DNA of 64,000 nt from an uncultured Methanosarcinales archaeon (GTDB lineage Archaea; Nanobdellota; Nanobdellia; Woesearchaeales; GW2011-AR4), in the NCBI GenBank assembly GCA_964438385.1, contig CAYTKI010000011.1, positions 48,739-112,738 of the forward strand, given 5' to 3'. This document shows, in pieces, positions 9,892 through 59,867 of the stretch. Below the pieces are notes generated by a model, which was given only the letters and a program-made list of their open reading frames with translations, did not search any database and was not told where the DNA came from. Position 1 is the first letter of the stretch, and every line of letters begins with the position of its first letter. Both the position numbers and the translations under genes were made by a program.

Positions 9892-10869
9892 ATGGCAAAA
9901 ATTCTAGTGACTGGCGGTACGGGCTATGTGGGGGCGAACCTAGTCGTTGCGCTGGCAAAGGGGAGGCACCAAATAACCATCTTTGCAAGCCAGCCAATGC
10001 ATCCGTTCCTAAAGGATTTGAATATCAGGATCATCCAAGGGGATATCCGTGACCAGGGGGCAGTCGAGAGCGCGATAAAAGGCAAGGATTATGTCTATCA
10101 CCTTGCCGCGACCGCTATCAACGATCCGAAGAGAAGAAAGGATATCTTCGATATCAACGTACTCGGGACGGAGAGTGTGATGAGGGCCGCTCTCAAGCAC
10201 AAAGTGAAGAAAGTCGTCTACACAAGCTCCAGCGCAGCGCTTGGCTTTTCCAAGAATGAGGTTCCGCTCGATGAAAAAAATTTCCTTGATGAGAAGGATA
10301 ATCTCTATGGCATCTCAAAGAAAAATGGGGAGGACATCGTCCTGGAATATGTCAAGAAAGGCCTTAATGCGGTGATTGTCATGCCCTGCTATGTCGTTGG
10401 CGCAGGAGAGGTGGATCCGCAAAGATACGGGCTCTGGAAAAGCATCCATGCGGGAAGGATCCGCTTCACCTATCCGGGAGGCGGAGGAACCGTTGCCATC
10501 GAGGATCTGGTGGAAGGCATCATGCTTGCGATGAAGAAAGGAAAGGCAGCAGAGCGCTACAATCTCTGCAGCGGCTATATCCGGCTCTTTGATTTCTATA
10601 ATCTCATCGCAAAAGAGATGGGAAGTCCAGGGATACGGTGGAAAATACCGCGCATGGGCTATTATCCCGCCTATTTTCTTGCCGCTATTCTCGAAAAGCT
10701 TTTGAAGAGCCCTCCAATCACAAGGGAAGCGGTGCGATGGCATTTCAATTACAAGATGCCGGATTCCTCGAAAGCAAGGAAGGAGTTGGGGTGGGATCCC
10801 AATGTCCAGCTCAGGGAATCAGTCCAGCGCGCAATCGCGTACTACAAGAAAATCGGGGTGCTTCCATGA
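9892..10869 (+). CDS. NAD-dependent sugar epimerase/dehydratase (extended SDR)
   Basis: KILVTGGTGYVGANLV...YTSSSAA...YGISK (GxxGxxG, YxxxK). Confidence 0.8.
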   Translation: MAKILVTGGTGYVGANLVVALAKGRHQITIFASQPMHPFLKDLNIRIIQGDIRDQGAVESAIKGKDYVYHLAATAINDPKRRKDIFDINVLGTESVMRAALKHKVKKVVYTSSSAALGFSKNEVPLDEKNFLDEKDNLYGISKKNGEDIVLEYVKKGLNAVIVMPCYVVGAGEVDPQRYGLWKSIHAGRIRFTYPGGGGTVAIEDLVEGIMLAMKKGKAAERYNLCSGYIRLFDFYNLIAKEMGSPGIRWKIPRMGYYPAYFLAAILEKLLKSPPITREAVRWHFNYKMPDSSKARKELGWDPNVQLRESVQRAIAYYKKIGVLP

Positions 10870-11351
10870 AAATGGACCTGTTCCAGAAAATCATTAATAT
10901 GATAATCAATAGGATGAGGGTTTTTGTCAATAACGGGACGGCAAAGGTGCTCTCAAAGCCACACTTCATGACAAGAATTTTCGTGAACAGAGGGGCCCAT
11001 CTTGAGATAGGGATGAACACCAGCATCCAGCCCTACACAGTCGTTAATGTCGGAAGAAAAGTCAGCATCGGAAGCGATGTCATGGTCTCGCCGCATTGCT
11101 TCATCTCTGATTTCCAGCACGACTTCAAGCTCACGGGAAAGGAGAGGATGGAGAGCATGAAATACATGGATTGCGTGATAGACGATGGTGCATGGATCGG
11201 CTTTGGAAGCGTCATCATCGGCTCAAAGATCGGAAAGAATGCCGTAATTGGGGCGAATTCGACGCTCATCAACAAGGACATCAAAGACGATCATCTGTTT
11301 TTTGGTGACAGCAGGCTTGAGCAGACCCCAGAGCAGCTTAAGATTCGTTAG
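10866..11351 (+). CDS. Left-handed beta-helix (hexapeptide-repeat) acetyltransferase
   Basis: Hexapeptide repeats (VSIGSDVMV, AWIGFGSVIIGSKIGKNAVIGANSTL). The ATG overlaps the upstream stop (ATGA). Confidence 0.7.
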   Translation: MKMDLFQKIINMIINRMRVFVNNGTAKVLSKPHFMTRIFVNRGAHLEIGMNTSIQPYTVVNVGRKVSIGSDVMVSPHCFISDFQHDFKLTGKERMESMKYMDCVIDDGAWIGFGSVIIGSKIGKNAVIGANSTLINKDIKDDHLFFGDSRLEQTPEQLKIR

Positions 11352-12427
11352 AAGGAAATGACATCCGCAAGGAATTCTGCCGCATATTTGCCATCGGTAA
11401 TGCGGTGGTCAAATGCAATAGTCAGGTTTATTTTTGAGTCATGGGAAAGTTTTCCGCCATGTTGGGCGCAGGAATCATATTCTGAACCGATGCCAACGAT
11501 TGCAGATTGCCTTGCATTGATGAGGGGCTGGAATGAGAGAACGCCTGTTGCGGAGAGATCAGAGACGGTGAAGGTCCCTCCGTCCATGTCTTCCACTATA
11601 AGCGCGTTCTTTACTGTTTTCATGATGTGCTGCTTGTACTCTTCGGCAAATTGCGATAAGGGAATTCCTGATGCATTCTTTATGACCGGCACGAGCAGCT
11701 CATTTCCCACGTTTATGGCAATCCCAAGGTTGACCATCTTATACACCATAAATTTTCCCGCATGAAAATAGCTGTTAAGAAGCGGAAATTTCTTGAGGGA
11801 TAGTGCGATGCGAAATGAGAGGAATTCGCCTGAGCTAAGATTGATACGCAACTCGCTTTTTGCCTTCAAAATCGCCTCCTTGAGTTTGGAGGCAGAGCAT
11901 GTCATAGTAACTGAAGAGACAATATACTCCTTATTATGCGAGATTGCTTCTATCTCAGCAAGCTTCCGCGGAGAAATATCTTGCGCAATTGCATTGGTTT
12001 GCGTCAGTGACGCAATGTACTCTAGAATGTCAGATTCCTTGATAATCTTAGAAATTCCTTTGAACGCTGACAAAATATCTATGCCGTTATCTGCAGCAAG
12101 CTTTTTTGCAGATGGCGTTGCCTTGATATCGGTTGTAGCATCAGTTTTTGCTGTCTGCTGCGTGCGCTTGAAAGGCGCAATGGTTTCACCCGCAGTTCCG
12201 ATGAATCCAAGTTCATCAAGAACGTTATAGCGCTTCCCCAGCTCTGCTTCTAGGGCAAGTACCATTCCCTCACTCTCTGCCTCGATGCCATAGACAGCTT
12301 TCTCAGTCTCCACTTCGAAAAGAATGTCTCCCTTCTTCACAGTATCCCCCTTCCTAGCAAAGAGTTTGACAACAAGCGCCGTTGAGATATTTGCCCCCAT
12401 TTTGGGGATATAAATGAGTGTTCCCAT
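11348..12427 (-). CDS. Dihydrolipoamide acyltransferase (E2) of a 2-oxoacid dehydrogenase complex
   Basis: Lipoyl domain (ILFEVETEKAVYGIEAESEGMV), linker/PSBD region, and C-terminal 2-oxoacid_dh catalytic domain (AFDHRITDG). Confidence 0.85.
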   Translation of the reverse strand: MGTLIYIPKMGANISTALVVKLFARKGDTVKKGDILFEVETEKAVYGIEAESEGMVLALEAELGKRYNVLDELGFIGTAGETIAPFKRTQQTAKTDATTDIKATPSAKKLAADNGIDILSAFKGISKIIKESDILEYIASLTQTNAIAQDISPRKLAEIEAISHNKEYIVSSVTMTCSASKLKEAILKAKSELRINLSSGEFLSFRIALSLKKFPLLNSYFHAGKFMVYKMVNLGIAINVGNELLVPVIKNASGIPLSQFAEEYKQHIMKTVKNALIVEDMDGGTFTVSDLSATGVLSFQPLINARQSAIVGIGSEYDSCAQHGGKLSHDSKINLTIAFDHRITDGKYAAEFLADVISF

Positions 12428-12532
12428 GTCCTATGGTCCCCCAATTCCGTTTAAATAAGTTTGCTCGGGAAAGCCGCCATTCAGTTGCCAATCACTCTCA
12501 TTCTTGCCTGGCAACCAACACCCGCTCCCCAA

Positions 12533-13669
12533 TCATTTATTTTTTGAGGGCATATTGCTTTTCAAAATATTATCTCTGAGAATCTCTGCCACAAGCGTAT
12601 GGCCTTCCACGTTCCAATGACCATCAACAATGAAATAGAATGTGTTGTTGATGTTTTTCTGCCTGAACTCATCTAGGGGGTTGATGGCAGCAATGCCTTC
12701 TTTTTTGAGCCAGGGGACAAGCTCATCCTGCACTCTTGTCCTATTGATATCATTTAGCCCATTTTCCGAAGCGAATTTTTGCATCATCCCCTCATCAACC
12801 TGCTCTTTTGCCGGACTTACAAGAACCATAAAGTGGATATTTCTTTCATCAAGATATTTTTTCATGGCATCAAGCAGAAGCAAGGTCTTTTGGAATGCCT
12901 GCTCATACTCTTTGCTTTGCTCATTGGAATAGATTAGCGTATTGAAGTCCGCTTTTGGATCTTTTGTAGAAGGGTTGAGAAGGTGCATCCCAATGAGGAG
13001 GTTACTGATTTTCTTATTATCAATAACCGAGAAATAGAAAAGTGAATAGAGATGGGAATGCCAGCTCACCATATTCCTCACTTTCAGGGAGAAGCCCACA
13101 TCCTTTTTTGGAGTTTGGATAAGGGTGCTATTTTGTACCTCGAAGAGATTATACTTCACGTTCTCCTTAAGATCATTTGGAAAAAAGCTGAGAACGACCA
13201 TATCTGGGTGGAATGCCGCAACAGTATCCCTGAGAAGGAGGTATTCCTGCTCGGTACCATAGGCCGATATCCCAAAATTCATAACTTCGTATTTTCCTCT
13301 ACTATTATTTCCGTTGAGGAGCCGCTCAAGTACTTTGGCAAATGCCTCATTCTCCTCAACCCCAAACCCGAACACAAATGAGTCGCCGAGAACCGCGATT
13401 CTTTTCACGCCTTCTGGCTTCTGCACAGCATACTCCCTATCCCGAAGTCCTTGGGAGCTAATCCTCACATGCGTCTTGAATTCTAGGCGCTGAAGTACAG
13501 TTGAAATTCCCGGCTTGTGCTCAAATATCTTTTCAGAATCAAGCTGAGTGATATTGAGGTTTTGCGGGAAGAAGAGGCGGAGAAAGATTTCTGTAAGGAG
13601 GAATATAACCAGCAGCGCAGCAATTGCGACTGCAGCATTTTTCAAGAAACCCCCCATGCTCCAATTCAT
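12533..13669 (-). CDS. Membrane-anchored SGNH/GDSL hydrolase (paralog 1), inserted between E1beta and E2
   Basis: N-terminal TM helix, then block I RIAVLGDSFVFGFGV and C-terminal DGHWN (catalytic D/H). Confidence 0.7.
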   Translation of the reverse strand: MNWSMGGFLKNAAVAIAALLVIFLLTEIFLRLFFPQNLNITQLDSEKIFEHKPGISTVLQRLEFKTHVRISSQGLRDREYAVQKPEGVKRIAVLGDSFVFGFGVEENEAFAKVLERLLNGNNSRGKYEVMNFGISAYGTEQEYLLLRDTVAAFHPDMVVLSFFPNDLKENVKYNLFEVQNSTLIQTPKKDVGFSLKVRNMVSWHSHLYSLFYFSVIDNKKISNLLIGMHLLNPSTKDPKADFNTLIYSNEQSKEYEQAFQKTLLLLDAMKKYLDERNIHFMVLVSPAKEQVDEGMMQKFASENGLNDINRTRVQDELVPWLKKEGIAAINPLDEFRQKNINNTFYFIVDGHWNVEGHTLVAEILRDNILKSNMPSKNK

Positions 13670-13901: not shown

Positions 13902-14876
13902 TCATTCATCCAATAAGGCCAATACTGCCGCCTCTATCCTCTCTTTGTTTGGGATCAGTTTTTTCTCAAAGCTGGGATTGCAGGGAATGGGCGCATCAAA
14001 GGTGGCAATTCTCTTCATGGGAGCGTTAAGCGAATAAAAGCAGGATTCATTGATTCGTGCCATGATTTCTGCCGCAACTCCTGCCTCCTGAAAACCCTCA
14101 TCAACAATGACCACTTTTCCGATTTTCTTGACTGACGCGGAGATTGTCTCAATGTCAAGCGGCTTGATAGTGCGAAGATCAATCACTTCAACAGATACAC
14201 CATGTTTCTCAAGCTCCTGCGCGACTTCAAGGCAGTCATTGACTAGCTTGCTAAAGGAAATGAGTAGGGCATCGCTGCCAATTTTTGCCACCCTGGCTTT
14301 TCCTAACGGAATAAGTGCAGGGGCATTTGTAACATCTGCCTTTACCGAATACAACAATTTATGCTCGACAAATACAACGGGGCTGTTGTCCGCAATCGAC
14401 GCATGAAGCAATGCCTTTGCCTCAAGGGGATTTGAGGGAGCAACGATCTTGATGCCGGGAATATGCATGAGGGGGGCATACAATGATTTGGAATGCGTCG
14501 CCCCATACCCCCGCCCGGCCCCTGCTGCGACGCGGATGACTACGGGAACAGAAGTCTTTCCGTTTGAGAGATAGTGGAAGATGCTCGCATGATTGAATAG
14601 CTGATCATATGCCAATGTCACAAAATCCATGAACATGAGTTCCACAACGGGGCGAAGCCCCTGAATTGCGGCTCCAACGCCAAGCCCAACGATTGCCGCC
14701 TCCGACATCGGCGTGTCGATGACTCTTTTGCTTCCGTATTTGTCAAACAGCCCTTTCGTCATGCCAAAGCACCCGCCATAGACTGCAATGTCCTCCCCTG
14801 CAAGAAAGACATTCTCATCATTTGCAAGTGCCTCATCAAGGCCTTCCCGAATCATCTCCCCATAGGATTTCATCAT
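13902..14876 (-). CDS. 2-oxoacid (pyruvate/acetoin) dehydrogenase E1 beta subunit
   Basis: Transketolase-like pyrimidine-binding and C-terminal domains. Overlaps the E1 alpha gene by 4 nt. Confidence 0.9.
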   Translation of the reverse strand: MMKSYGEMIREGLDEALANDENVFLAGEDIAVYGGCFGMTKGLFDKYGSKRVIDTPMSEAAIVGLGVGAAIQGLRPVVELMFMDFVTLAYDQLFNHASIFHYLSNGKTSVPVVIRVAAGAGRGYGATHSKSLYAPLMHIPGIKIVAPSNPLEAKALLHASIADNSPVVFVEHKLLYSVKADVTNAPALIPLGKARVAKIGSDALLISFSKLVNDCLEVAQELEKHGVSVEVIDLRTIKPLDIETISASVKKIGKVVIVDEGFQEAGVAAEIMARINESCFYSLNAPMKRIATFDAPIPCNPSFEKKLIPNKERIEAAVLALLDE

Positions 14877-15814
14877 GGCGCGTACACATTCTCCAATAAC
14901 CTGCTCTCCTCCTCTTCAGGAAGCGCAATGACTTCGTCCGCTATGGTGTTTACAGTTGCAGTGCATTCTTCTTTGAATGCATTAATCGCTTCCCTCGTGG
15001 TTTTTCCGCTGTCAATAAGTTCATTTTCCATGGCCGGAACAGCATCCTTTCCGAACCAGAACTGCTCTTCTTTCTTGTCGCGGTACAGGTTCTGATCGTT
15101 TTTCGAGTGGCCATGGTGCCTATACGTCTGCACCTCGATGAATCGGGGGGAGGGGGTTTTCCGCATGTCACTGATGAATGTTTTTGCTGCCAAATCGAGC
15201 TTGTTGTAGTTATTTTCAGGTATGGTCTCGCAAATGATGCCAAATCCTTCTACCCTCTTCTTGATAGTTGCAGAAAGAACGCGATTGACATGGGTTGACA
15301 TTGCGTAAAAATTGTTCTCGCACACGAAGAGTACCGGAACGTCAAGGACTTTTGCCATGTTGAGTGCCTCAAGCGCAAATCCCTCATTCATGGTCCCGTC
15401 CCCAAGGTATGCAACAACAATGGAGTCCTTGCCTTTGTACTTGTCCGCAAAGGCCATGCCGTTTGCAACCGGCATCATGCCGCCGGTGATACCATTGGCA
15501 AAGAAATTGTGATCCTTTGAGCTCACGTGCTGCGAGCCTCCTTTGCCCCTGTTATACCCGATTTTCTTGCCCAGAAGCTCTGCGAGAAATAGGCGAACAT
15601 CAAGCCCTTTGGCAAGAGCATGCCCATGGCCGCGGTGCGTGCTCGTGACCGCATCCTCATCAGTGAGGTATTGGGAGATGATGACGGGAATAAACTCCTG
15701 GCCTATGCAAAAGTGCGCAGTTCCATGCACCAACCCTTTTTTGAAGAGCTCATCAAGCTTTTTCTCAACAGTGCGTATGAGAAAAGTCTTCTTATAAACT
15801 TCAAAATCCATGTG
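14873..15814 (-). CDS. 2-oxoacid dehydrogenase E1 alpha subunit (TPP-dependent)
   Basis: GDG TPP-binding motif (YLGDGTMNEG), HGHS phosphorylation-loop-like region (YRHHGHS). Start placed at MDFEVYKK; the 27-aa N-terminal extension in the track is probably not translated. Confidence 0.85.
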   Translation of the reverse strand, partial: HMDFEVYKKTFLIRTVEKKLDELFKKGLVHGTAHFCIGQEFIPVIISQYLTDEDAVTSTHRGHGHALAKGLDVRLFLAELLGKKIGYNRGKGGSQHVSSKDHNFFANGITGGMMPVANGMAFADKYKGKDSIVVAYLGDGTMNEGFALEALNMAKVLDVPVLFVCENNFYAMSTHVNRVLSATIKKRVEGFGIICETIPENNYNKLDLAAKTFISDMRKTPSPRFIEVQTYRHHGHSKNDQNLYRDKKEEQFWFGKDAVPAMENELIDSGKTTREAINAFKEECTATVNTIADEVIALPEEEESRLLENVYAP

Positions 15815-15880
15815 GTCTGGAGAGCCAGAAACGTTTAAATAGGTTTCTGAGGAAGCACTCTGCTTTAAGAGGGAAAATGG

Positions 15881-16099
15881 ATGGATGAAGAGCAACTCAA
15901 GGCGTTCACTGCGGAGTACTGGAAGCTTAAGCCATCAGGGGTACACGAAGGGCTTTCTTTCGATAATGTGCAGATCGCAAATTTTAGCTCCATTAAGTTC
16001 TATCGTTTCATCGCGGAAGTGGAGAAGAGATTCAAGGTCAAGGTGCACAATCTCAGTCAGATAGCCACTCTAAAGGATCTTCTCGCTAACCTGAAATAA
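15881..16099 (+). CDS. Small acyl/aminoacyl carrier protein-like protein (copy 1)
   Basis: 72 aa. The core NFSSIKFYRFIAEVEKRFKVKV aligns residue-by-residue with copy 2 at 47751..47999 (DSFNNLMLISKFEEEYNVRF) and fits a phosphopantetheine-attachment Ser followed by helix II/III. TTTAAATA sits 40 nt upstream. Confidence 0.5.
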   Translation: MDEEQLKAFTAEYWKLKPSGVHEGLSFDNVQIANFSSIKFYRFIAEVEKRFKVKVHNLSQIATLKDLLANLK

Positions 16100-16103
16100 G
16101 GCC

Positions 16104-17432
16104 TTACTTCTTTCCTTTCTGGGCAATTTCGACAAGCGCGGCATCTACCGCTTGCAAAAATGCCTCTGAAAGAGTCGGGTGGGCATGTACGGTCTTATGG
16201 ATATCTTCCAATGTGAGGTTGTTTCTGATGGCAAGCGTTGGCTCTGCTACAAGTTCCGATGCCCAAGGGCCAATGGCGCAAAAACCCTTGAGATAGTTGC
16301 CATCGTGAAATATTTTAACAAACCCATCTATGTCCCCAAGGGCGCGGGCCTTGCCGTTTGCGGCGAATCGGAAGATGCTTGAGGGAAGGGTTGAATTTCG
16401 CACGCCAACAGAGGAGATTTCAGGTAAGGTGAAAATAGCGGCAGGAATAATTGTTCCGTCAAATTCCTTTCTTTTGCCCATGAGAGTTGAGGCAGCGGCT
16501 TCTGCCTGGGCAGAAGCAAAATGCGCAAGCATGGTCAGCCCGGTGACATCACCGACCGCATAGATATTTTCCACGCTGGTCTGCATCATGCTATTGACGT
16601 GAATTCCCTTCGAATAGTTTACACCAAGTTTGTCTAATTCTTTCTTGTCAAAAGATGGCTGAACGCCGATTGCGACAAGAATCCTATCTCCCTTCACACT
16701 CTTTGCTCCATTTTCATGCAGAAATGAGATTTCATCCTCCTTAATGCCCGTTACTTTTGCTTCGGTGAAAACATTTATGCCCTCTCTTCTCATCAGGCGC
16801 AGGATTTCCTCTGAGATATCGGCATCTTCTGTCGGCAGCAGCCGTTGTGCCATCTCAATGATTATCACCTTAGAGCCAAAGGCGCAGAAGAGGGAGGCGA
16901 ATTCACAGCCGATGTATCCTCCACCGATAATGACAAGTGTTGCGGGCAATTCAGTGACTTCAAGTAGCGTTGTGCTGTTAAGGACAAAAGGATTATCTTC
17001 TGTGTGGGGAAGCGCAATTGGCTTCGCTCCGGTAGCGATGACGATATTCTTTGTCTTGAGCTCTTTTCCATTGACAACAACAGTATGCCTGTCTTTGATT
17101 TTCCCTTCTCCGGAAATGACTTCCACATTGTGCTCATTCATCACCATGCCAATACCGCGCGAAAGCAATCCGGAAACCTCATCCTTGCGCTGCATAAGGG
17201 CGGCAAAATCAATCTGCACTTCGCCAGAAATGCCTGTCCCTTGTGCTTTCTTGAGCTTTTGGAGTAGCGTTGCTGTGGCATGCAGGGTCTTTGTCGGGAT
17301 GCATCCGTAATTGGTGCATGCGCCGCCGAGCTTGTCTTTTTCGATAAGTGCAGCTTTTCCACCAAGATCCGCTACAAGGCGCGCACATTCGTATCCACCT
17401 GGCCCTGAGCCGATGATTATTGCGTCATACAT
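16104..17432 (-). CDS. lpd: Dihydrolipoyl dehydrogenase (E3)
   Basis: YDAIIIGSGPGGY...GGACTNYGCIPTK redox-active disulfide motif. 442 aa. Confidence 0.9.
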   Translation of the reverse strand: MYDAIIIGSGPGGYECARLVADLGGKAALIEKDKLGGACTNYGCIPTKTLHATATLLQKLKKAQGTGISGEVQIDFAALMQRKDEVSGLLSRGIGMVMNEHNVEVISGEGKIKDRHTVVVNGKELKTKNIVIATGAKPIALPHTEDNPFVLNSTTLLEVTELPATLVIIGGGYIGCEFASLFCAFGSKVIIIEMAQRLLPTEDADISEEILRLMRREGINVFTEAKVTGIKEDEISFLHENGAKSVKGDRILVAIGVQPSFDKKELDKLGVNYSKGIHVNSMMQTSVENIYAVGDVTGLTMLAHFASAQAEAAASTLMGKRKEFDGTIIPAAIFTLPEISSVGVRNSTLPSSIFRFAANGKARALGDIDGFVKIFHDGNYLKGFCAIGPWASELVAEPTLAIRNNLTLEDIHKTVHAHPTLSEAFLQAVDAALVEIAQKGKK

Positions 17433-17567: not shown

Positions 17568-18596
17568 ATGAAAGAAAAGCAAAAGAACCTCATTGCACTT
17601 GTGGTATCCATTGCTCTCATCCTCTTCCTTGCCGAGATGATGCTGCGTTTTGTGGTGATAGGCCCCCCTCTAAAGGAAACTCCAAACTCCATGCACATTC
17701 CGCTTAACACTTCAGAACGGCTCTGGGGGCTTAAGCCAAACGAGGAAGGCATCCAGGCAGGCGCCTATTACAGGATCAACTCCCAAGGATTCAGGGATTA
17801 TGAATACTCACAAAAGAAGCCGGCAGGTGTTTATAGGATTGCCGTGATTGGTGACTCAGTCACATTTGGCAAGGGGGTTCTTTTGGAGGACACTTATACA
17901 AAGATCCTTGAGAAAGAGCTTCCTTCGCTTTGCAATAAGAAGATAGAGGTGCTCAATTTTGGAGTTTATGGCTACAACACAGAGCAGGAAGTTGCCGTTA
18001 TAAAGGAGCATGTATTGAAGTACCATCCGGACATGATAATCATGCTCTACACCCTTAACGATCCTGATGTTGAGTTCCAATTCATCCTTTCAAGAGTTGA
18101 GGAAAAAAAGACAGTGAGTGGGAGCGTCAAGAAATTCCTAAACGATCACATCTATCTCTATAAGATTGCCGCCCGCATTTACTACACACAGAGCCAAATC
18201 AAGAAAAACAAGAATTTAAGCATTCTAACTTTTTATCCGAAACTCCATAATAAATCATATCCAGGATGGAAGATGGTCGAGCAGAAATTTTCAGAAATGA
18301 GTGATTTAAGTAGATATGAAAGAATTCCGATTGTTCTTTTCATTCAGCCGGAGCTCTATAAGTTAAGCGGAGAGTATCCGTTCGCAGCCATCCATGCGCA
18401 GGTGATCGCAGAGGCCAAGGCAAGGGGAATTCCCGCCTATGATCTCTTCCCCTATTTCAAGGGAGGGAATCCGCGGGAGCTGAGGGTCAGTAATTTCGAG
18501 GATCGGCATCCAAACAAGAGGGGCCATAAGATAATCGCAGAAGGAATTATGGATATCCTCGCCAAAAATAATTTTCTTAAGGGATGCAATGCATAG
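17568..18596 (+). CDS. Membrane-anchored SGNH/GDSL hydrolase (paralog 2)
   Basis: TM anchor plus RIAVIGDSVTFGKGV. Same architecture as 12533..13669 and 19694..20851. Confidence 0.7.
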   Translation: MKEKQKNLIALVVSIALILFLAEMMLRFVVIGPPLKETPNSMHIPLNTSERLWGLKPNEEGIQAGAYYRINSQGFRDYEYSQKKPAGVYRIAVIGDSVTFGKGVLLEDTYTKILEKELPSLCNKKIEVLNFGVYGYNTEQEVAVIKEHVLKYHPDMIIMLYTLNDPDVEFQFILSRVEEKKTVSGSVKKFLNDHIYLYKIAARIYYTQSQIKKNKNLSILTFYPKLHNKSYPGWKMVEQKFSEMSDLSRYERIPIVLFIQPELYKLSGEYPFAAIHAQVIAEAKARGIPAYDLFPYFKGGNPRELRVSNFEDRHPNKRGHKIIAEGIMDILAKNNFLKGCNA

Positions 18597-19693: not shown

Positions 19694-20851
19694 CTACGTT
19701 CTTTGTGCCCTTTCAAGCTCTTCTTTGGCCTGCACGAAAAGCTGCTGCGCGACAAGGGCATGCCCTTCTGCGTTCAGGTGACCGTCAATGGGCAGAAACA
19801 GCGGAGCGGAAGTATCTTTTTCCCTGAAAGCGGTGTAGACATCCACAAAAGTGATGTTGTTTTTTTTTGCGTAGTCGTATAGTTCGTCATTGGGCCGCGT
19901 CCTGCTCACTTTTCCTTCTCCAATCCGCTTCTTGTACATGGTCCATTCCGCATCGCGTATCTGGAAGCGCACCGGCAGGGCAAGGAGGATAAGCGAAATG
20001 TTGTGTTCAAGTGAGAGGGTGTGGATGGCAGAAAGCACTTTCTTGTTTTTCTCCCAATCCTTGGCGATCCCCAGGTTGTATTCAAGATCAAAGATCCGAT
20101 TTGAGGAGGACACATCAACCCATTGCGAGACGCGGGTCTTGGCAAAGACAAAAAGATGGGAATGGGTGAGTAGGCCCTCATAGAGCGAATTCACTATCCT
20201 GTTCTTGAGCAGGGGTAGTGTGCGCTTAGCGCTGCGCAGCCGGTGCTCTTCATCAACAGAATAGTAGGGTGAGGTAATTTTTTGCAGAAGTCCTTGCTCA
20301 TCACTCTCCCAAACATTGAGGGAAACATCAGTGACATCGTTATAGACAAAAAAACCGATAATGATGACATCTGGCTTGAATTTTTCCAAGGCATAATTCT
20401 TGAGATAGAGATAATAGCTGTCAAGTGAGTACCCATCGCTAAATCCGGTGTTGAACACCTGGTACGCGATTCCCTTGGAGTTGAGTATCCTCTCAAGTGA
20501 TTTAGCATAAGTTTCATTCATCTCAACCCCAAAGCCGTAGGTCATGGAATCACCCATCACAAGGACACGGGTCAAGTTGGAATGGATTGGGCGTTCATAG
20601 TCTCGAATCCCATAGGAATTGATCTCAACAGACACGTTGAAATCCCCATACACCCCGATATGGGTGTCTTTTGCCCCAGGCATGAGTGTCCAGGGAAGAT
20701 ACTCGCTCTTCTGGTAGATCTGAGGGGAGCTGTGCCTCGCAGTAGAGTAGGTTACCTGCGGCAAAAAGAGCCGAAGCGCGATCTCAAGTAGGAGAATCGA
20801 AACGAGGAGCGCTGCTGTGAGCGCAAGGATATTTTTGTGGAAGTTTCTCAT
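19694..20851 (-). CDS. Membrane-anchored SGNH/GDSL hydrolase (paralog 3)
   Basis: TM anchor, RVLVMGDSMTYGFGV, DGHLNAEGH. Confidence 0.7.
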   Translation of the reverse strand: MRNFHKNILALTAALLVSILLLEIALRLFLPQVTYSTARHSSPQIYQKSEYLPWTLMPGAKDTHIGVYGDFNVSVEINSYGIRDYERPIHSNLTRVLVMGDSMTYGFGVEMNETYAKSLERILNSKGIAYQVFNTGFSDGYSLDSYYLYLKNYALEKFKPDVIIIGFFVYNDVTDVSLNVWESDEQGLLQKITSPYYSVDEEHRLRSAKRTLPLLKNRIVNSLYEGLLTHSHLFVFAKTRVSQWVDVSSSNRIFDLEYNLGIAKDWEKNKKVLSAIHTLSLEHNISLILLALPVRFQIRDAEWTMYKKRIGEGKVSRTRPNDELYDYAKKNNITFVDVYTAFREKDTSAPLFLPIDGHLNAEGHALVAQQLFVQAKEELERAQRT

Positions 20852-20938: not shown

Positions 20939-21003
20939 AGTCCCATAAGAAAATTTAAATAAACCTCTAAATTTGGGAAAATAGATGGAAATTCGATAAA
21001 AAC

Positions 21004-21855
21004 GTGAATGCGATGAACCAAAATCTTGAGCAATTGAAGGATGTGTTATCTGCAGAAGTTGTCAGGATCTACGCGGAAGCCTTCGGAGAGCCCAAGCTGA
21101 AAAAAGCCCTTGCGTTCCTGAAAACCTATAACACGGAGTTCCTCTTGGGCCAAAGCAGGCTGAACCGAAGCAAGAATTATGAGAAAGGCAATGAGAAGGA
21201 TTTGCATGCGCTCTATTACACCGATGCGGAGTTTATGCAGTTCTACAATGACTCCCTCTTCCTCTCCTACGCCCATTGGAAGAACCATAATGCCATGCTA
21301 AGGTACTTCATCAAGATAGTCAGGAAAATCAAGCCGGAAACTGTCCTTGACGTTCCCTGCGGATCAGGTTTCTACACGCGCTACCTGAGAAAATCCTCCC
21401 GCTCATTCCCGCACATAACCTGCGTCGATGCGAGCGAGCATTCGCTGCAGTTCGCAAAAAAAATAAACAGGGATTCGCAAAATGTTTTCTATCTCAGGGA
21501 GGATTTCAGGAATATCGGAGGAAAATACGATTTCATCATCTGTGGAGAGCTCCTCGAGCACCTTGAAAAGCCAAAAGAATTGCTCGCATTCCTCCGCAAG
21601 CGCGTCAAGGAAGATGGAAAGGTCTTTTTGACCACGGCTCTTTTTTGTTATGCCCATGATCATATCTATATGTTCAGGAGCGCAAGGGATGTGAGGAGAT
21701 TGCTGAAAAAATACTTCTTCATAGAGAATGAATTGGTCCTGCCTGTCTTTGACAGCCAGAAGCTGGGGCATAATGTCCCCACAAACTATGCCTGCCTTCT
21801 GAGGCCGATAAAGACGGGCGGCAGGCAGAATAATGGGGAAGATGCTTCCTTCTAG
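21004..21855 (+). CDS. Class I SAM-dependent methyltransferase
   Basis: VLDVPCGSGFYTRYL (motif I), DFIICGELLEHL (motif II/III). GTG start in the track. Confidence 0.7.
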   Translation: MNAMNQNLEQLKDVLSAEVVRIYAEAFGEPKLKKALAFLKTYNTEFLLGQSRLNRSKNYEKGNEKDLHALYYTDAEFMQFYNDSLFLSYAHWKNHNAMLRYFIKIVRKIKPETVLDVPCGSGFYTRYLRKSSRSFPHITCVDASEHSLQFAKKINRDSQNVFYLREDFRNIGGKYDFIICGELLEHLEKPKELLAFLRKRVKEDGKVFLTTALFCYAHDHIYMFRSARDVRRLLKKYFFIENELVLPVFDSQKLGHNVPTNYACLLRPIKTGGRQNNGEDASF

Positions 21856-22829
21856 CCGGATCCTGATGCATTCCTCCGGATAATCGCGATATCTGCCGCG
21901 AGCTGCCTGGAAAATTGGGCGCTGCCCTCATCGTTGAGGTGCACGCTGTCTGCGAATAAGAAATGGTTTGTATAGTTCCAGCGTTGATAGTCCAGAAGAT
22001 AGGTATTGGAGACATTGCCGTAATAATCACCGAGAATCCCGTAAAATCCCTTTGTATCGGGAATATACCCTGAAGCGATTGAGAGATAGGTGTCTGTAAC
22101 GGGAAATTTCACCAGGATGACGGTGATGTTTCTCTTTTGCGCAAGGGCAAGCGTTTTTTGGAAGTAGTGGATCATTCCTGGGTGCAGGATGGACGCGTTC
22201 CTGAAGTGGTATGCTGCGCGCTGCGAGGCGATGCCATCCTTATCTGCGGCCATGCTAAAGCGGTCATGCATCGGCAGGTGGCCAAGCGCCATTTCCCGCG
22301 AACCTCCCTCAAAGAGAGAAGCCACGAGCTTTTCTCCCCCTCCGATTATTGGGAACGCCGATTTGATGTACTCCTTGAAGGGGTATACCTCATCAAAATG
22401 ATACCACAACTCTTCATAATCAATGAACTTGTGCCAATACCACACATCCTGTACTCTCGAAGCCCTATAGGAAGAAAAGGAGTGGAGATTAAGCGGCAGG
22501 ACGATCACCTCAGGCTCAAAGCCGGAGTCGTTAAGAAGAAAGCGGAGCTTATAGTATGTCTGCATGTAGGTTTCCCCCGCCAAGCCGTAGTTAAAGGATC
22601 CTGGGATAAACGCCGGATTCACGTCTGCCTGCGTTGATGAATCCCCGAGGAACAGAATCTTCACATCAGGCTTGCTCTTGGAGAACTGCTCATCTTGGAT
22701 CCAAAGCCCGGTTCTCTTCAGCACGTATTCTGCATACAGGGCATTAAGAAGGAGAAAAAGAACAAGAAAGAGGAGCGCAAAGGCGCCTGCATATCCCAAT
22801 GATTTGTACATTTCCTTTTCCATGGTCAA
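21852..22829 (-). CDS. SGNH-like O-acyltransferase partner protein (DltD/AlgJ-like), paralog 4
   Basis: TM anchor, ILFLGDSS block I, adjacent to and co-oriented with the MBOAT gene (4-nt overlap). Confidence 0.6.
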   Translation of the reverse strand: MTMEKEMYKSLGYAGAFALLFLVLFLLLNALYAEYVLKRTGLWIQDEQFSKSKPDVKILFLGDSSTQADVNPAFIPGSFNYGLAGETYMQTYYKLRFLLNDSGFEPEVIVLPLNLHSFSSYRASRVQDVWYWHKFIDYEELWYHFDEVYPFKEYIKSAFPIIGGGEKLVASLFEGGSREMALGHLPMHDRFSMAADKDGIASQRAAYHFRNASILHPGMIHYFQKTLALAQKRNITVILVKFPVTDTYLSIASGYIPDTKGFYGILGDYYGNVSNTYLLDYQRWNYTNHFLFADSVHLNDEGSAQFSRQLAADIAIIRRNASGSG

Positions 22830-24277
22830 AACTGGAAATAAATGAAGGGTGTTTTTTCAAATACGCCAAAGAGCAAAATGAAGAGTATGGCAAGGGCAGA
22901 GACGCTCCATTTCACCACAAGAGATCCTTTGGAAAGAGAATCCTCATGGAGCATGTCTTTCTCCTCAAGCCATTCCCAGAACAGGAGCAGTGTGATGGTG
23001 CCGAAGGAGATGGCAAGGCCATACCAGCTCAGGCCGATAAATGTTCCCCCGACAGAGAGGCTCCAGCCGCTGAGAAGATGAGTGAATATGTAGTAGGCAT
23101 CTCCCAGGGAGTTCGAGCGGAAGAGGATGTTGGAAAGGGAGAACAAAAGGAAGGTGGCAATCACTTTCAGAAGCTGTGGCATGGTATCCCACTGCTTTCT
23201 TGCAAAATAGTAGAGGAAAATCAGCAATGCCATGCACCATCCATAGATGATAAAATTCCAGCTCGCGCCGTGCCACAGGCCAAGAAGCGGCCAGCCGATG
23301 AACAGGCAGAGTGTAAAGGCGAGTGTGTGGAGTATTTTCGCATCCTGCACGAATTCCCTAGATGTTTCCTTAAGCAAAAGATAGAGCGGGATGAAAACAT
23401 AATCCTGGAACCATTTAGTGAGGGAAATATGCCAGCGGTTCCAAAGCTCAGCGATGGACTGCGCAAAAAATGGTCTTCGGAAATTCTGAACTAGGCTATA
23501 GCCCATAATCCCTGCAGTCCCACGTGCGATGTCAGAATACCCGGAGAAATCGCAGTAGATCTGAATCGTGAAGGCAAAAGCCGCCAGAAGCAGCTCCATG
23601 CCATTGTAAGACGAGGGAGAACTGAAGACAGTGACGGTGAGCAGGGAGAGGCGATCCGCGATAACAACTTTCTTGAAAAAACCAAGGGCGATGAGCTGTA
23701 GGCTGCCAAAAATGCGGGAGTTGTCCCATTTCTTTTCCTCATAGAATTGCGGAAGTAGATGTCCAGCGCGCTCGATTGGCCCCGCGACAAGCTGTGGGAA
23801 GAACGCATGGTAGACTGCGTAAATTCCAAAGTGTCTTTCCGCAGTGATTTTTTTACGGTAGACATCGATATTGTAGCTCACGGCCTGGAAAGTGTAAAAT
23901 GAGATGCCGACAGGCAGGATGAGATTGAGGGCAAGGGGAGAGAACTGGATGCCGATGTGGGAGAAGAGTTCCCTGAGCGATTCGCCAAAGAAATTCGCGT
24001 ACTTGAAGGCAAAGAGCATGCCGAAGTTGCCAAATAGCCCAAACAGAAGCAATGTTTTGCGGGTGCGTGGATTTTCCGACTTCTCCATGAAGAGCGAGCA
24101 GAAGTAGCCAATGAGTGTGGAGAGGAAAAGAAGGATGCCATACTCAAGCTTCACGCTCATGTAGAAGTAATAGCTCGCGATGAGGAGCAGCATCCAGCGG
24201 AAGCGGTGGGGAATAGTGAAATGCAGTAGCACCACAATGGTAAAGAACACTAAAAATTCAAGGGAGTTGAAGAGCAT
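22826..24277 (-). CDS. MBOAT-family membrane O-acyltransferase (AlgI/DltB-like)
   Basis: 483 aa polytopic. FYTFQAVSYNIDVYRKK, QLVAGPIER, and a conserved His region, typical of AlgI/DltB. Confidence 0.85.
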   Translation of the reverse strand: MLFNSLEFLVFFTIVVLLHFTIPHRFRWMLLLIASYYFYMSVKLEYGILLFLSTLIGYFCSLFMEKSENPRTRKTLLLFGLFGNFGMLFAFKYANFFGESLRELFSHIGIQFSPLALNLILPVGISFYTFQAVSYNIDVYRKKITAERHFGIYAVYHAFFPQLVAGPIERAGHLLPQFYEEKKWDNSRIFGSLQLIALGFFKKVVIADRLSLLTVTVFSSPSSYNGMELLLAAFAFTIQIYCDFSGYSDIARGTAGIMGYSLVQNFRRPFFAQSIAELWNRWHISLTKWFQDYVFIPLYLLLKETSREFVQDAKILHTLAFTLCLFIGWPLLGLWHGASWNFIIYGWCMALLIFLYYFARKQWDTMPQLLKVIATFLLFSLSNILFRSNSLGDAYYIFTHLLSGWSLSVGGTFIGLSWYGLAISFGTITLLLFWEWLEEKDMLHEDSLSKGSLVVKWSVSALAILFILLFGVFEKTPFIYFQF

Positions 24278-33424: not shown

Positions 33425-33432
33425 CTTTAAAT
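33425..33432 (+). promoter_or_regulatory. TTTAAATA box (archaeal TATA-like) upstream of the wHTH-NTase gene
   Basis: TTTAAATA lies 37 nt upstream of the ATG at 33469. Similar boxes occur at 15834-15841, 20955-20962, 41121-41128 and 51011-51021. Confidence 0.4.
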
Positions 33433-33468
33433 ACCACTATTAACCATTAGTTAATAACTATTAACAAA

Positions 33469-41098: not shown

Positions 41099-41178
41099 GC
41101 TCCAATGAAAGAAAAGCTATTTAAATAATTTCCCATGAGAGAGTGATAAGGCCGCTAGATTAGTGGCTCAGAGGAAAT

Positions 41179-44588: not shown

Positions 44589-45005
44589 GTGAATAGCTAC
44601 ACCTATGGGGAGATTGAAGTTGGGCAATCTGCGTCATTTGAAAAAACAATCACAAAAGAGGACATTCTTTTATTCTCAAAATTGACAGGGGACAAAAATC
44701 CGCTTCATGTGGATGAAGAGTACGCAAAGCAGACAAAATTCAAGAAACCAGTTGCATTCGGGCTCCTCATCAGTTCCCTGTGGTCTACAATTGCCGGAAT
44801 GCATCTTCCAGGGAAGCATTCGCTGATACTTTCTGTGCAGTCTAGTTTCAGAAAGCCCTGCTTCGTAGGGGATACCCTGACAGTAGAGGGTGTGGTGAGG
44901 CAGAAAGTGGATGTTGGAAGCATCCTCGTCCTGGGCCTCTCAGTGAAAAACCAGACTCGCGCGATTGTTGCTGATGGGGAGATGAAAGTGCAGGTGCTAA
45001 AGTGA
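44589..45005 (+). CDS. MaoC-like (R)-specific enoyl-thioester hydratase/dehydratase (hot-dog fold)
   Basis: 138 aa. LTGDKNPLHVDEEYA...FGLL is the MaoC hot-dog signature. Confidence 0.75.
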   Translation: MNSYTYGEIEVGQSASFEKTITKEDILLFSKLTGDKNPLHVDEEYAKQTKFKKPVAFGLLISSLWSTIAGMHLPGKHSLILSVQSSFRKPCFVGDTLTVEGVVRQKVDVGSILVLGLSVKNQTRAIVADGEMKVQVLK

Positions 45006-45709
45006 AGCAGGCAGTCATCCTTGGGATAAGCGGGGATCTTGGAAAAGCGATAGCGCGGATGCTGTTGAAAAAGGGGTATCGTATTCTGGGGACCTCCCAC
45101 ACCCATCAAGCGGAGGAGTTTGCAGGTAATGGGAATGTCGAGGTCGTTTCCCTCGACCTTTCCGACGCAAACCAGGTGGAAAAATTTTGCAGCCAGATTG
45201 GGAAGCTGGAGGGCATTGATTTCATGGTGAATACCATAGGAAGCTACACCATGGGCCGCTTTGAGCAGATCCCATTTGAGACATTCCAAAAAGATTTCAA
45301 CCTCAACGTGCTGCTTTATATTCAGGTGCTTCAGAAGGCATTTCCAAAATTCAGAAAAGATGCAAATCTCATCTTCATATTGACGGAGATGGTAGTTGGT
45401 GACCCGAGCTATTTTCTCACGCCTTACGTATCATCAAAGTACGCCCTCCTTGGGCTTATGAGGGCGCTCGCAGGAGAGCTGAAGCAGCGTGGCATTCGAG
45501 TAAATGGAGTCTCTCCGGGGATGATGGATACAAGATTCATAGCTTCAGTTCCGCGCATCGTAAAGGAGCAATACCTGAGAAATTCCCCCTTGGGTAAGTT
45601 TGTGGATCCAAAAGAAGTTGCCAATGTTATTGAGAATATCGTGGATGATCCTTCCATGAACGGAGAAAATATTCCTCTCTTGGGAAAGAAAATGCCGCAG
45701 GGAAAATGA
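45002..45709 (+). CDS. Short-chain dehydrogenase/reductase (SDR)
   Basis: AVILGISGDLGKAIA (TGxxxGxG-like), YVSSKYAL (YxxxK). 4-nt overlap with the MaoC gene. Confidence 0.75.
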   Translation: MKQAVILGISGDLGKAIARMLLKKGYRILGTSHTHQAEEFAGNGNVEVVSLDLSDANQVEKFCSQIGKLEGIDFMVNTIGSYTMGRFEQIPFETFQKDFNLNVLLYIQVLQKAFPKFRKDANLIFILTEMVVGDPSYFLTPYVSSKYALLGLMRALAGELKQRGIRVNGVSPGMMDTRFIASVPRIVKEQYLRNSPLGKFVDPKEVANVIENIVDDPSMNGENIPLLGKKMPQGK

Positions 45710-46041
45710 GGATTGGAATAGATATCGAGGAAGTGAAGCGTTTTGTGCTCAGTAGAAATCACCCTTTTATCAGGCATGCATTCACAAAAAAAGAAATGAG
45801 GTATGCGTTTTCAAGGAAAAATCCTGCAATGCACCTGTGCGGGTTCTTCTGCGCAAAGGAGGCGCTCATAAAGGCCCTCTGCCCTGCTTCGCTTCTTCTC
45901 AGGGAGATAGAGATTACGCACGGAAGGAATGATGAACCAAAGATGAGCATTCTCAAGAAAAGTTTAAAAATTCGGAAGGGGATTGATGTAAGCATCTCCC
46001 ACACGGAAAAATACGCAGTGGCAGTTGTGATGGGGAAGTGA
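45706..46041 (+). CDS. acpS: Holo-ACP synthase (4'-phosphopantetheinyl transferase, AcpS type)
   Basis: 111 aa. MRIGIDIEEVKRF...FTKKEMRY...FCAKEALIKAL...VSISHTEKYAVAVV. Classic AcpS blocks. Confidence 0.75.
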   Translation: MRIGIDIEEVKRFVLSRNHPFIRHAFTKKEMRYAFSRKNPAMHLCGFFCAKEALIKALCPASLLLREIEITHGRNDEPKMSILKKSLKIRKGIDVSISHTEKYAVAVVMGK

Positions 46042-46054
46042 GTGGGGAAGTCTC

Positions 46055-47758: not shown

Positions 47759-47999
47759 GAACCTGGAAGAAAATGTAAGAAAGACAGTGGAAACAGTCAT
47801 GGGTGTTGATATCGGGGCTATGGACAGTGAAACTAAGTTTAGTAGCATCTCCGCATGGGATTCATTCAACAACCTCATGCTCATTTCCAAGTTTGAGGAG
47901 GAGTACAATGTGCGCTTCACCGCAGTAGAGATCGAGCAGACGCAGACAGTGGGCGATCTGCTTATCTTGATGGAGAGAAAAGTCGAAAAAGCGCAATAA
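47751..47999 (+). CDS. Acyl carrier protein (copy 2)
   Basis: 82 aa. SAWDSFNNLMLISKFEEEY is a DSL-type phosphopantetheine attachment site plus helix II. Homologous to the 15881..16099 ORF. Confidence 0.6.
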   Translation: MDKNLEENVRKTVETVMGVDIGAMDSETKFSSISAWDSFNNLMLISKFEEEYNVRFTAVEIEQTQTVGDLLILMERKVEKAQ

Positions 48000-50930: not shown

Positions 50931-51044
50931 TGCACCATTTGCATTGTTGTTATTCTTAAAGATTTGCTGAATTGTGTAAAAATCTTCTTTGGAATATTTT
51001 CTTCTGGTAGAAATATATTTAAACCATCCTCCATTGGTCTCCCT

Positions 51045-55723: not shown

Positions 55724-55840
55724 TGGATAGTATTTAAACTTTTTGCTTGGGTTGGCTTGTAGGTGGGTTTGTGGTGTATTTTTAGGGGAGGGATCTTATT
55801 GTGTGCGCCTAATATACCAGAAACTTTTCTACCCTCCGAT

Positions 55841-56602: not shown

Positions 56603-56770
56603 GAAGTTGCCTGTTACTCATAATTTATTTTTAAGTCTATTGCATATAACGGTCCATAGAGAAAACGCGAAATGTTTTTAAACGAGGCGGCGTTCTTTGG
56701 GAAGGGTGAATGCGTGGATTCCATCGACAAATTCAAGGATTCAGAAGGGAGAATTAGCAGGGAAAATATC

Positions 56771-57211: not shown

Positions 57212-57225
57212 AAGATTGTTCTTCC

Positions 57226-58350: not shown

Positions 58351-58363
58351 AAAATGAATGTAG

Positions 58364-59830: not shown

Positions 59831-59867
59831 ACGTAGTCCCAAGATCCGGGCTGAATGGTATAAAATC

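Follow-up and report, generated by a model that had tools for sequence, protein, structure and literature searches.

A 72-amino-acid (aa) protein encoded at positions 15881–16099 (+) of a 64,000-nucleotide stretch of archaeal DNA (contig CAYTKI010000011.1; hereafter the window) is, judging from its sequence, an acyl carrier protein (ACP) of a divergent subfamily. The 2-oxoacid dehydrogenase genes E1alpha, E1beta, E2 and E3, among which its gene sits, appear to be its functional partners and not mere surroundings, a point absent from the first-pass annotation of this DNA. They are tied to the carrier by the partners conserved with its relatives, namely an E2-type acyltransferase domain, an LbH (hexapeptide-repeat) acyltransferase and an AcpS-type 4'-phosphopantetheinyl transferase (PPTase). 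We propose that the pyruvate dehydrogenase (PDH)-like E1/E2/E3 enzymes charge this carrier instead of coenzyme A (CoA) and that a sugar then receives the acyl group through the LbH enzyme, a reading to which we give a probability of roughly 55%.

A divergent family of acyl carrier proteins

The open reading frame (ORF) runs from an ATG at 15881 to a TAA at 16097–16099, and Ser37 of its product is the predicted phosphopantetheine attachment site. Used alone as the query of a word-index search, the 72-aa sequence matched only itself, and relatives emerged from an exhaustive HMMER search, with 21 cluster representatives at E<1e-3. The profile search gave 37 proteins at E<=1e-3, and about 60 relatives make up the family. 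Trp14 and Ser37 are invariant in both the 22- and the 37-sequence alignments, and Phe43, Ala45 and Glu48 are invariant or nearly so; the family motif reads x-S-[IL]-[RK]-F. The family profile matches solved ACPs (best E=9.6e-6), with Ser37 aligned to their phosphopantetheine serine (DSI/DSL). In the AlphaFold2 model of the carrier (pLDDT 92.7, pTM 0.81) helix II spans residues 37–51 and begins at Ser37, and the top 50 matches of a Foldseek search of the PDB were ACPs or ACP-containing complexes (TM ~0.6–0.8, root-mean-square deviation about 2 Å).

The family is also linked to PPTases. Seven representatives are fusions of the carrier to AcpS, scoring 45–56 bits with Pfam ACPS (cut-off 25); nine other loci have a separate AcpS gene, and in locus L091 the AcpS domain is fused to an E2-like protein. 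The suggestion that the ORF encodes a phosphopantetheine-type carrier is thus borne out by the invariant serine, the ACP fold and the AcpS fusions, and by fold, serine and PPTase linkage the protein belongs to the ACP superfamily. When the Pfam PP-binding model (PF00550; gathering threshold 20.8 bits) was applied to this ORF and to the second carrier gene of the window at 47751–47999, the latter passed with 24.7 bits and the 72-aa protein stayed below with 15.2 bits. That so confident an ACP falls under this cut-off points to a divergent subfamily. Precomputed Pfam annotation is empty for 36 of the 37 relatives, and an NCBIfam scan of the carrier (E<=10) returned only a generic ACP subfamily at 17 bits against a cut-off of 66. 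Names are attached to four of the 37 in all, three JGI entries called 'acyl carrier protein' and one NCBI entry called 'hypothetical protein'.

A genuine gene between E3 and E1alpha

The ORF fills a 292-bp gap between E3 and E1alpha and overlaps no coding sequence. It converges with E3, with 4 nt between the stop codons (E3 stop at 16104–16106, minus strand), and diverges from E1alpha across a 69-bp gap. The ORF-listing program starts E1alpha at a TTG (15895), which we rejected in favour of the downstream ATG (15811). Gene calls on two further contigs with identical sequence include the 72-aa ORF and assign E1alpha a length of 312 aa. The first-pass annotation had located the ORF on the opposite strand between E3 and E1alpha, which is correct, and had called it antisense, which it is not, since it sits in an intergenic gap. 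On the minus strand the order is E3, the gap with the carrier on the plus strand, E1alpha, E1beta, an SGNH/AlgX-like gene and E2, followed by the LbH gene on the plus strand, which converges on E2.

The ORF is a genuine conserved gene. A 46% identical homologue of 74 aa occupies the same place beside E1alpha on a Candidatus Woesearchaeota contig of 27% GC, whose E1alpha is closer to that of the window than any other in the genome collection. The scan of that collection with E1alpha returned 80 loci, and only one of them (L003) has a member of the carrier family; at 1 in 80, ordinary E1alpha relatives, for example those of Pedobacter, are uninformative. Its shortness (72 codons), intergenic position and lack of a Pfam match above threshold would fit an ORF that arose by chance between divergent genes, in a promoter region, but the idea is ruled out by homologues in related genomes, with protein-level conservation over loci of 26% to 71% GC, by the high-confidence fold and by the independent gene calls on other contigs.

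Conserved gene neighbourhoods of the carrier family

About 22 non-redundant loci, the window and 21 others, including those from a metagenome scan, were screened with the window proteins as queries. Because the flanks extended no further than 10 kb and several of the contigs are short, absences are soft. Two types of locus were found. In type A (the window, L003, L083, L085, L087, L089 and L101) the carrier lies beside E1alpha-E1beta-(E3)-E2, with AcpS beside E2 or fused to the carrier; in L089 and L101 the carrier gene comes after E2, and in the other five it adjoins E1alpha. Inside the E1-E2 operon of L003 (9161–11032) and L083 (4385–6327) lie LplA, split into LplA and its C-terminal domain, and a lipoyl-synthase-like radical SAM gene, which make the module of these two loci self-sufficient. 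Neither gene was found among the window ORFs of at least 150 aa that were scanned.

In type B (L090, L091, L093, L098–L100, L102, L104–L107 and probably L092) a MaoC<-ACP<-FkbH group, often with a short-chain dehydrogenase/reductase (SDR), is divergent from a Zn-ribbon->carrier->LbH->AcpS group that ends in a stand-alone 2-oxoacid_dh catalytic domain. The carriers of the two types are 55–65% identical and hence form one orthologous group. The partners that stay constant, the E2-type acyltransferase domain, LbH and AcpS, appear to define what the carrier does. At least 11 loci have LbH immediately beside the carrier gene, and most others have it nearby. The window holds a complete type A set (LbH, E2, E1beta, E1alpha, carrier and E3) and, 30 kb off, a type B front end.

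Several of these partners are fused to one another: AcpS, the E2 catalytic domain and a B12-radical-SAM domain in L091, the carrier and AcpS in L089 and L101, E2 and, at its C-terminus, the Zn-ribbon in L101 (probably also in L089), and AcpS and, again at the C-terminus, the Zn-ribbon in L092. The Zn-ribbon mini-protein has about 48 aa and two CxxC pairs (RCxKC[FL][IV]TLxRLKxD...Y[IL]CxxCxxGW), belongs to no Pfam family and is the product of a gene that immediately precedes the carrier gene in about 18 related loci, with mini-ORFs at L083:9823–9969, L003:5794–5949 (minus strand), L099:6270–6482, L087:9843–10007, L090:9874–10041 and L091:8265–8411, among others. A further apparent fusion, of LbH to the carrier (P0005; L088:141–773, 210 aa), proved to be two adjacent genes with an in-frame TGA between them and was counted as adjacency; it is either a gene-calling artefact or comes from an organism that reads TGA as sense.

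Stand-alone 2-oxoacid_dh domains of type B were found at L098:4727–5332, L099:7668–8285, L100:6011–6622, L104:1691–2314, L106:1064–1714 and L107:12515–13123, and forms fused to a B12-binding radical SAM domain at L090:5344–7401 and L091:3453–5813, the latter also with AcpS. These E2-like domains read YD[SA]RVxDC where the window E2 and the other aligned type A E2s read FDHRxxDG, so that the histidine is lost and a conserved cysteine gained. Most loci of the family have a low GC content (26–41%) and, judging by nearest relatives and promoter-like motifs, are probably archaeal (Woesearchaeota-like), and L089, L092 and L101, at 56–71% GC, look bacterial.

The dehydrogenase and LbH genes of the window

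E1alpha (14873–15811, minus strand, 312 aa) is a thiamine diphosphate-dependent dehydrogenase subunit that scores 194 bits with Pfam E1_dh and 271 bits with NCBIfam PDH_E1_alph_y, whose equivalog cut-off is 394; it is below the equivalog cut-offs in general. E1beta (13902–14876, minus strand, 324 aa) matches Pfam Transket_pyr and Transketolase_C and the NCBIfam PDH E1beta subfamily (332 bits versus 321). E2 (11348–12427, minus strand, 359 aa) matches Pfam 2-oxoacid_dh with 144 bits and Biotin_lipoyl, and is far under every NCBIfam E2 equivalog cut-off. It consists of a lipoyl domain, a short remnant of the E3-binding region and a catalytic acyltransferase domain whose DHRxxDG motif is intact (...AFDHRITDGKY...). 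The dihydrolipoyl dehydrogenase E3 (16104–17432, minus strand, 442 aa) matches Pfam Pyr_redox_2 and Pyr_redox_dim and NCBIfam lipoamide_DH (454 bits versus 409). The LbH acyltransferase (10866–11351, plus strand, 161 aa; Pfam Hexapep) is convergent with E2 and overlaps its 3' end. Its best matches are the LbH genes directly downstream of the carrier in L091 (E=4e-17) and L090 (E=2e-16), and it weakly resembles sugar acetyltransferases of the WbbJ/NeuD/WcaF type.

A second carrier in an FkbH operon

The second carrier (47751–47999, plus strand, 82 aa) is a canonical FkbH-cognate ACP. It is the last gene of one tight operon at 44589–47999, which begins with a MaoC-type dehydratase (44589–45005, plus strand, 138 aa; Pfam MaoC_dehydratas, 66 bits) and continues with an SDR (45002–45709, plus strand, 235 aa; Pfam adh_short_C2, 114 bits), an AcpS-type PPTase (45706–46041, plus strand, 111 aa; Pfam ACPS, 58 bits versus 25; NCBIfam pantethn_trn, 66 versus 45) and an FkbH-like glyceryl-ACP synthase (46055–47758, plus strand, 567 aa; Pfam FkbH_N; NCBIfam FkbH domain, 301 bits versus 147). 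A 194-aa ORF at 44705–45289 (minus strand), antisense to MaoC and SDR, has no family match and is probably spurious. A search of the window with a custom AcpS hidden Markov model (HMM) found no second PPTase, and the copy at 45706–46041 presumably serves both carriers. The custom HMM included L003:12493–12795, which itself has no ACPS domain, so the match at that locus is an artefact; the match in the window is confirmed independently of the custom HMM by Pfam and NCBIfam.

The first-pass annotation had presented the 72-aa and 82-aa proteins as homologous carriers. A profile comparison recovered the same serine register, with Ser37 opposite the serine of WDS, over 61 columns (E=0.0012); the relationship is remote, at 16% identity, with no meaningful alignment by BLASTP and a score of E=0.87 for the 82-aa ACP with the carrier-family HMM. 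The two are thus homologous at the level of the superfamily and not close paralogues. FkbH has its own ACP gene immediately downstream in the window and in L090, L091, L098–L100, L104, L107 and L109, a position that is held in the window by the 82-aa ACP and not by the 72-aa carrier. The suggestion that the 72-aa protein is a second ACP for the FkbH system is right in part: about 11 loci contain a member of its family together with FkbH-ACP-MaoC-SDR, but an ACP of its own always comes directly after FkbH. The 72-aa carrier is accordingly not an FkbH-cognate ACP, and it is not a DltC either.

The MBOAT and SGNH genes

An MBOAT gene (22826–24277, minus strand; Pfam MBOAT) of PatA/AlgI-type architecture lies 6.7 kb from the carrier gene, and three SGNH/AlgX-like genes are present, in keeping with the first-pass annotation, which had described an MBOAT about 7 kb away and several SGNH proteins. 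One of the three (12533–13669, minus strand), with an N-terminal membrane anchor, a 39-bit match to Pfam ALGX and a match to Lipase_GDSL_2, stands between E1beta and E2; the others are at 17568–18596 and 19694–20851. The only NCBIfam match of the MBOAT is DltB, at 138 bits and below cut-off. Its C-terminus reads FIYFQF, as does that of the MBOAT in L109 (10001–11458). FxYxxF is the C-terminal acyl-tyrosine motif of PatA/AlgI-type MBOATs, and DltB, which lacks it, has it supplied by DltX (PMC12148441). PatA has been shown to use acetyl-CoA, and DltB takes its acyl group from the carrier DltC (PMC12148441). The MBOAT family is large (at least 8000 matches at E<1e-20), and its members are frequent among Woesearchaeota, Nanoarchaeota, bacteria of the candidate phyla radiation and clostridia.

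Three close homologues of the MBOAT were examined. Two had no carrier nearby. In the third, L109 (6503–12434), AcpS and an SDR<-MaoC<-ACP<-FkbH group are divergent from an MBOAT gene, 50% identical to that of the window, and the gene of a 323-aa partner; this locus lacks LbH, an E2 domain and any member of the 72-aa carrier family. To judge from STT3 and a weak geranylgeranyl-reductase match close by, the L109 contig looks archaeal. A 325-aa protein without a Pfam or NCBIfam match is encoded directly downstream of the window MBOAT (21852–22829, minus strand), and its homologues follow the MBOAT in L108 (3138–4136; E=1e-37) and L109 (11463–12434; E=5e-36); it is possibly SGNH-like or another kind of MBOAT partner. 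Because L109 places FkbH-ACP beside an MBOAT, the 82-aa ACP would be a likelier partner of the window MBOAT than the 72-aa carrier, if that enzyme uses a carrier at all. L109 also hints that the acyl donor of a PatA/AlgI-type MBOAT may be derived from glycerate and bound to an ACP.

Proposed charging of the carrier and alternative explanations

In the mechanism that we propose, AcpS (45706–46041) would convert the apo-carrier to its holo form at Ser37. E1alpha/E1beta would decarboxylate a 2-oxo acid, likeliest pyruvate, or cleave a ketose phosphate, and the E2 lipoyl domain would be reductively acylated. The catalytic domain of E2 (DHRxxDG) would then hand the acyl group to the phosphopantetheine thiol of the carrier and not to CoA, and E3 would re-oxidise the lipoamide. 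The acyl-carrier would be the donor for LbH (10866–11351), which would acylate a sugar or nucleotide-sugar of the glycan island in which these genes lie. Acetyl derived from pyruvate is our default guess for the acyl group, with glycolyl or others as alternatives. The MaoC-SDR-AcpS-FkbH-ACP operon would be a separate carrier module and, by analogy with L109, a likelier feeder of the MBOAT.

Several observations weigh against this proposal. The carrier misses the Pfam PP-binding gathering threshold (E=0.026), and its role, other than that of a carrier protein, is deduced from fusions and from the genes around it. E1beta and E3 pass the ordinary PDH and lipoamide dehydrogenase cut-offs, and a normal CoA-dependent complex is compatible with the sequence. 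Neither LbH nor AcpS adjoins the carrier gene in the window, being 4.5 kb and 30 kb away, respectively, and neither the window nor L085 has the Zn-ribbon mini-protein of most relatives. The presence of an SGNH/AlgX gene within the E1-E2 operon, an arrangement confined to the window, points to an extracytoplasmic MBOAT/SGNH route and away from a cytoplasmic LbH; it is the sole finding that continues to connect the E1/E2/carrier module with such a route. Finally, the type B E2-like domains have no catalytic histidine, no lipoyl domain and no E1, so the loading of the carrier by E2 cannot follow identical chemistry everywhere.

ACP-fold proteins act as structural subunits in some complexes (mitochondrial complex I, NFS1-ISD11), and the 72-aa protein might likewise serve the dehydrogenase complex, or AcpS, as a structural or regulatory subunit and take no part in acyl transfer. 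The sub-threshold PP-binding score and entries of the complex I/NFS1-ISD11 type among the fold matches would fit such a role. We consider it highly unlikely, given an invariant serine at precisely the site of attachment in ACPs, recurrent fusion or adjacency to a PPTase, which is hard to explain without phosphopantetheinylation, and a tight link to two acyltransferase families. A better case can be made for a second carrier of the FkbH pathway, which would receive a glycerate-derived C3 unit (glyceryl or lactyl) from FkbH, its ACP (47751), MaoC and SDR via an E2-type transacylase, with E1 and E3 having a different or accessory role. About 11 loci have the type B layout with no E1 or E3, the FkbH set of the window (44589–47999) lacks a carrier/LbH/E2 catalytic domain trio of its own, this trio sitting at the E1/E2 locus instead, and the combination of FkbH, ACP and a stand-alone E2-like acyltransferase is known from tetronate pathways (PMC5819245). 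However, five type A loci (L003, L083, L085, L087 and L089) have no FkbH in the flanks covered, the window carrier is beside E1alpha and 30 kb from FkbH, the window E2 keeps its lipoyl domain and catalytic histidine like other type A and unlike type B proteins, and the FkbH set of L109 is paired with an MBOAT without a carrier of the 72-aa family. On balance we regard the FkbH pathway as an unlikely source of the acyl group.

The first-pass annotation also named as plausible a DltC-like carrier serving the MBOAT. In such a scheme the carrier would dock on the MBOAT, the acyl group would cross the membrane, and the SGNH/AlgX proteins would O-acylate an extracellular glycan. The MBOAT and three membrane-anchored SGNH/AlgX-like genes do lie within 7 kb, one of them inside the E1-E2 operon; the sole, sub-cut-off NCBIfam match of the MBOAT is to DltB, an enzyme that takes its acyl group from a carrier protein (PMC12148441), and the 50% identical MBOAT of L109 is divergent from an operon that encodes an ACP. 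The synteny fails to hold, though: in the flanks covered, none of the 21 other family loci has a homologue of the MBOAT or of the SGNH genes, and at least 8000 MBOAT relatives are set against about 60 carriers. The FIYFQF end is of the PatA/AlgI type, whose members are thought to be acyl-CoA users (PMC12148441). Moreover, the carrier beside the L109 MBOAT is an FkbH-type ACP, the two other close MBOAT homologues have none, no DltA-type AMP ligase was found among the window proteins scanned, and no DltC model matched the carrier in the NCBIfam scan. A DltC-like role is therefore doubtful, and we rate it below the FkbH pathway.

If charging by E1/E2/E3 is accepted, a wider picture can be drawn, which we offer tentatively. 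The E1/E2/E3 enzymes of these probably archaeal, Woesearchaeota-like genomes may form a self-contained carrier-charging machine for glycan decoration and not a central source of acetyl-CoA. They may be interchangeable with the FkbH-ACP-MaoC-SDR front end, both feeding an undescribed core of Zn-ribbon, carrier, LbH, AcpS and E2 domain. The MBOATs with an FxYxxF end (L109 and the window) may, in addition, take acyl groups from a carrier protein, which would be the first such case outside Dlt.

Comparison with known systems

Likened by gene content alone, the carrier cassette would work most like the Qnc/Scl acyl-ACP cassettes. In such a system, as described by Peng et al. in 2012, the lipoyl-bound acyl group is reportedly passed to a carrier protein and not to CoA. 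QncN/QncL/QncM of quinocarcin and SclQ1-4 with SclP of scleric acid are cassettes that make glycolicacyl-S-ACP (PMC6335953). They comprise an ACP of about 75 aa, an E1alpha-like protein of about 305 aa, an E1beta-like protein of about 338 aa, an E2 of about 386 aa with lipoyl and acyltransferase domains, and a PPTase (PMC6335953). The clustering of E1alpha, E1beta, E2 and a PPTase recurs in the window, L003, L083, L085, L087, L089 and L101. The Qnc/Scl cassettes are from Streptomyces and feed nonribosomal peptide synthetases, whereas those described here lie in glycan islands, come mostly from low-GC, probably archaeal loci and are paired with LbH. They further differ in having a dedicated E3, LplA and lipoyl-synthase genes in relatives, and a carrier under the Pfam PP-binding threshold. 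The E1 substrates of Qnc/Scl are ketose phosphates, and E1alpha/E1beta here look PDH-like.

LpxA and LpxD are LbH acyltransferases with acyl-ACP donors, and the carrier loci resemble them in the genetic coupling of an LbH-fold sugar acyltransferase to a carrier. The window LbH is nevertheless closer, weakly, to the WbbJ/NeuD/WcaF type, known users of acetyl-CoA, and use of an ACP is what we propose for it. With AcpP of type II fatty acid synthase (FAS) the carrier shares a four-helix fold in which helix II begins with a serine; it differs in its identity of about 20%, in the motif x-S-[IL]-[RK]-F in place of D-S-L, in the invariant Trp14 and in having no adjacent FAS genes.

The Dlt system likewise has a small carrier near an MBOAT and SGNH-like membrane proteins, and DltB is a documented carrier-dependent MBOAT (PMC12148441). 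Apart from the missing ligase, the missing DltC match and the carrier-MBOAT link of 0 in 21 loci, it differs in that FxYxxF is fused to the C-terminus of the window MBOAT and resides in a separate DltX in Dlt. The glycerate cassette of tetronates (ChlD1-D4, Agg4/Agg5; PMC5819245) contains FkbH, a cognate ACP and a stand-alone 2-oxoacid_dh-type acyltransferase, as type B loci do. In contrast to that cassette, the loci described here have no FabH-like ketosynthase or alpha/beta-hydrolase, lie in a glycan and not a polyketide context, and add a second, distinct carrier, LbH and the Zn-ribbon; the E2-like domain of type B also lacks the catalytic histidine.

Another bacterial E1/E2-plus-ACP cassette, with a standard ACP, was seen in Legionella qingyii (L062:4235–9248), where genes for an AMP-binding enzyme, E1alpha, E1beta, E2 and an 88-aa PP-binding ACP overlap on one strand. 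Weak matches similar to this cassette occur in L075 and L077.

Novelty and implications

We found no description of the carrier/E1-E2/LbH system in the literature on Woesearchaeota PDH, FkbH in O-antigens, Legionella lipopolysaccharide loci or FkbH with MBOAT. What is new are the carrier subfamily, its occurrence in glycan islands, the coupling to an LbH sugar acyltransferase, the Zn-ribbon partner and the apparently interchangeable E1/E2/E3 and FkbH front ends. If the proposal is true, E1/E2/E3 genes in such small genomes are not evidence for the oxidation of pyruvate to acetyl-CoA and are instead a dedicated acyl supply for cell-surface glycans. For annotation, a carrier subfamily that Pfam misses, and that is a 'hypothetical protein' in its sole named NCBI record, is now defined, together with a recurrent and searchable gene set of carrier, AcpS, E2-type acyltransferase, LbH acyltransferase and Zn-ribbon. 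The questions raised are whether an E2 acylates a carrier in a glycan pathway, and whether LbH enzymes of the WbbJ/NeuD kind and PatA/AlgI-type MBOATs accept acyl-ACP donors.

Expression signals and surroundings

The 69-bp gap between the carrier and E1alpha contains the archaeal TATA-box-like element TTTAAATA at 15834–15841, 23 nt from the E1alpha ATG and 40 nt from that of the carrier. The window has 8 copies of this element versus 2.45 expected, a number that none of 100 shuffles reached; copies, mostly intergenic, lie at 12450–12457, 15834–15841, 20954–20961, 33426–33433, 41118–41127, 51016–51023 and 55731–55738. The copy at 12450–12457 is also exactly 23 nt from the ATG of E2 (12427). A promoter with this 23-nt spacing would fit leaderless archaeal transcripts of E1alpha and E2, and the distance of 40 nt would leave room for a short carrier leader containing AGAGGGA (15868–15874, plus strand), a predicted Shine-Dalgarno-like sequence 7 nt before the carrier ATG. 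The same gap of the Woesearchaeota locus L085 contains the same 14-mer TTTAAATAGGTTTC, 22–23 nt from both ATGs, which suggests that the box is a shared, bidirectional promoter element. The box 40 nt upstream of the carrier that the first-pass annotation had reported is thus present, but is probably shared with E1alpha and not the carrier's own.

The window as a whole is a glycan-biosynthesis island, with glycosyltransferases of families GT2, GT4 and GT9, PMT_2 proteins, rmlCBDA, epimerases, methyltransferases, a formyltransferase and a flippase. Its GC content is flat at ~47%, with no sign of recent insertion. Towards its end (56672–62804, plus strand) follow genes for a FabA-like dehydratase, a thiolase-like protein, a DUF362 protein, an SDR (FabG-like), a second thiolase-like protein and a CoA-transferase of family III, a run suggestive of a cluster for acyl-chain metabolism that borders the glycan island.

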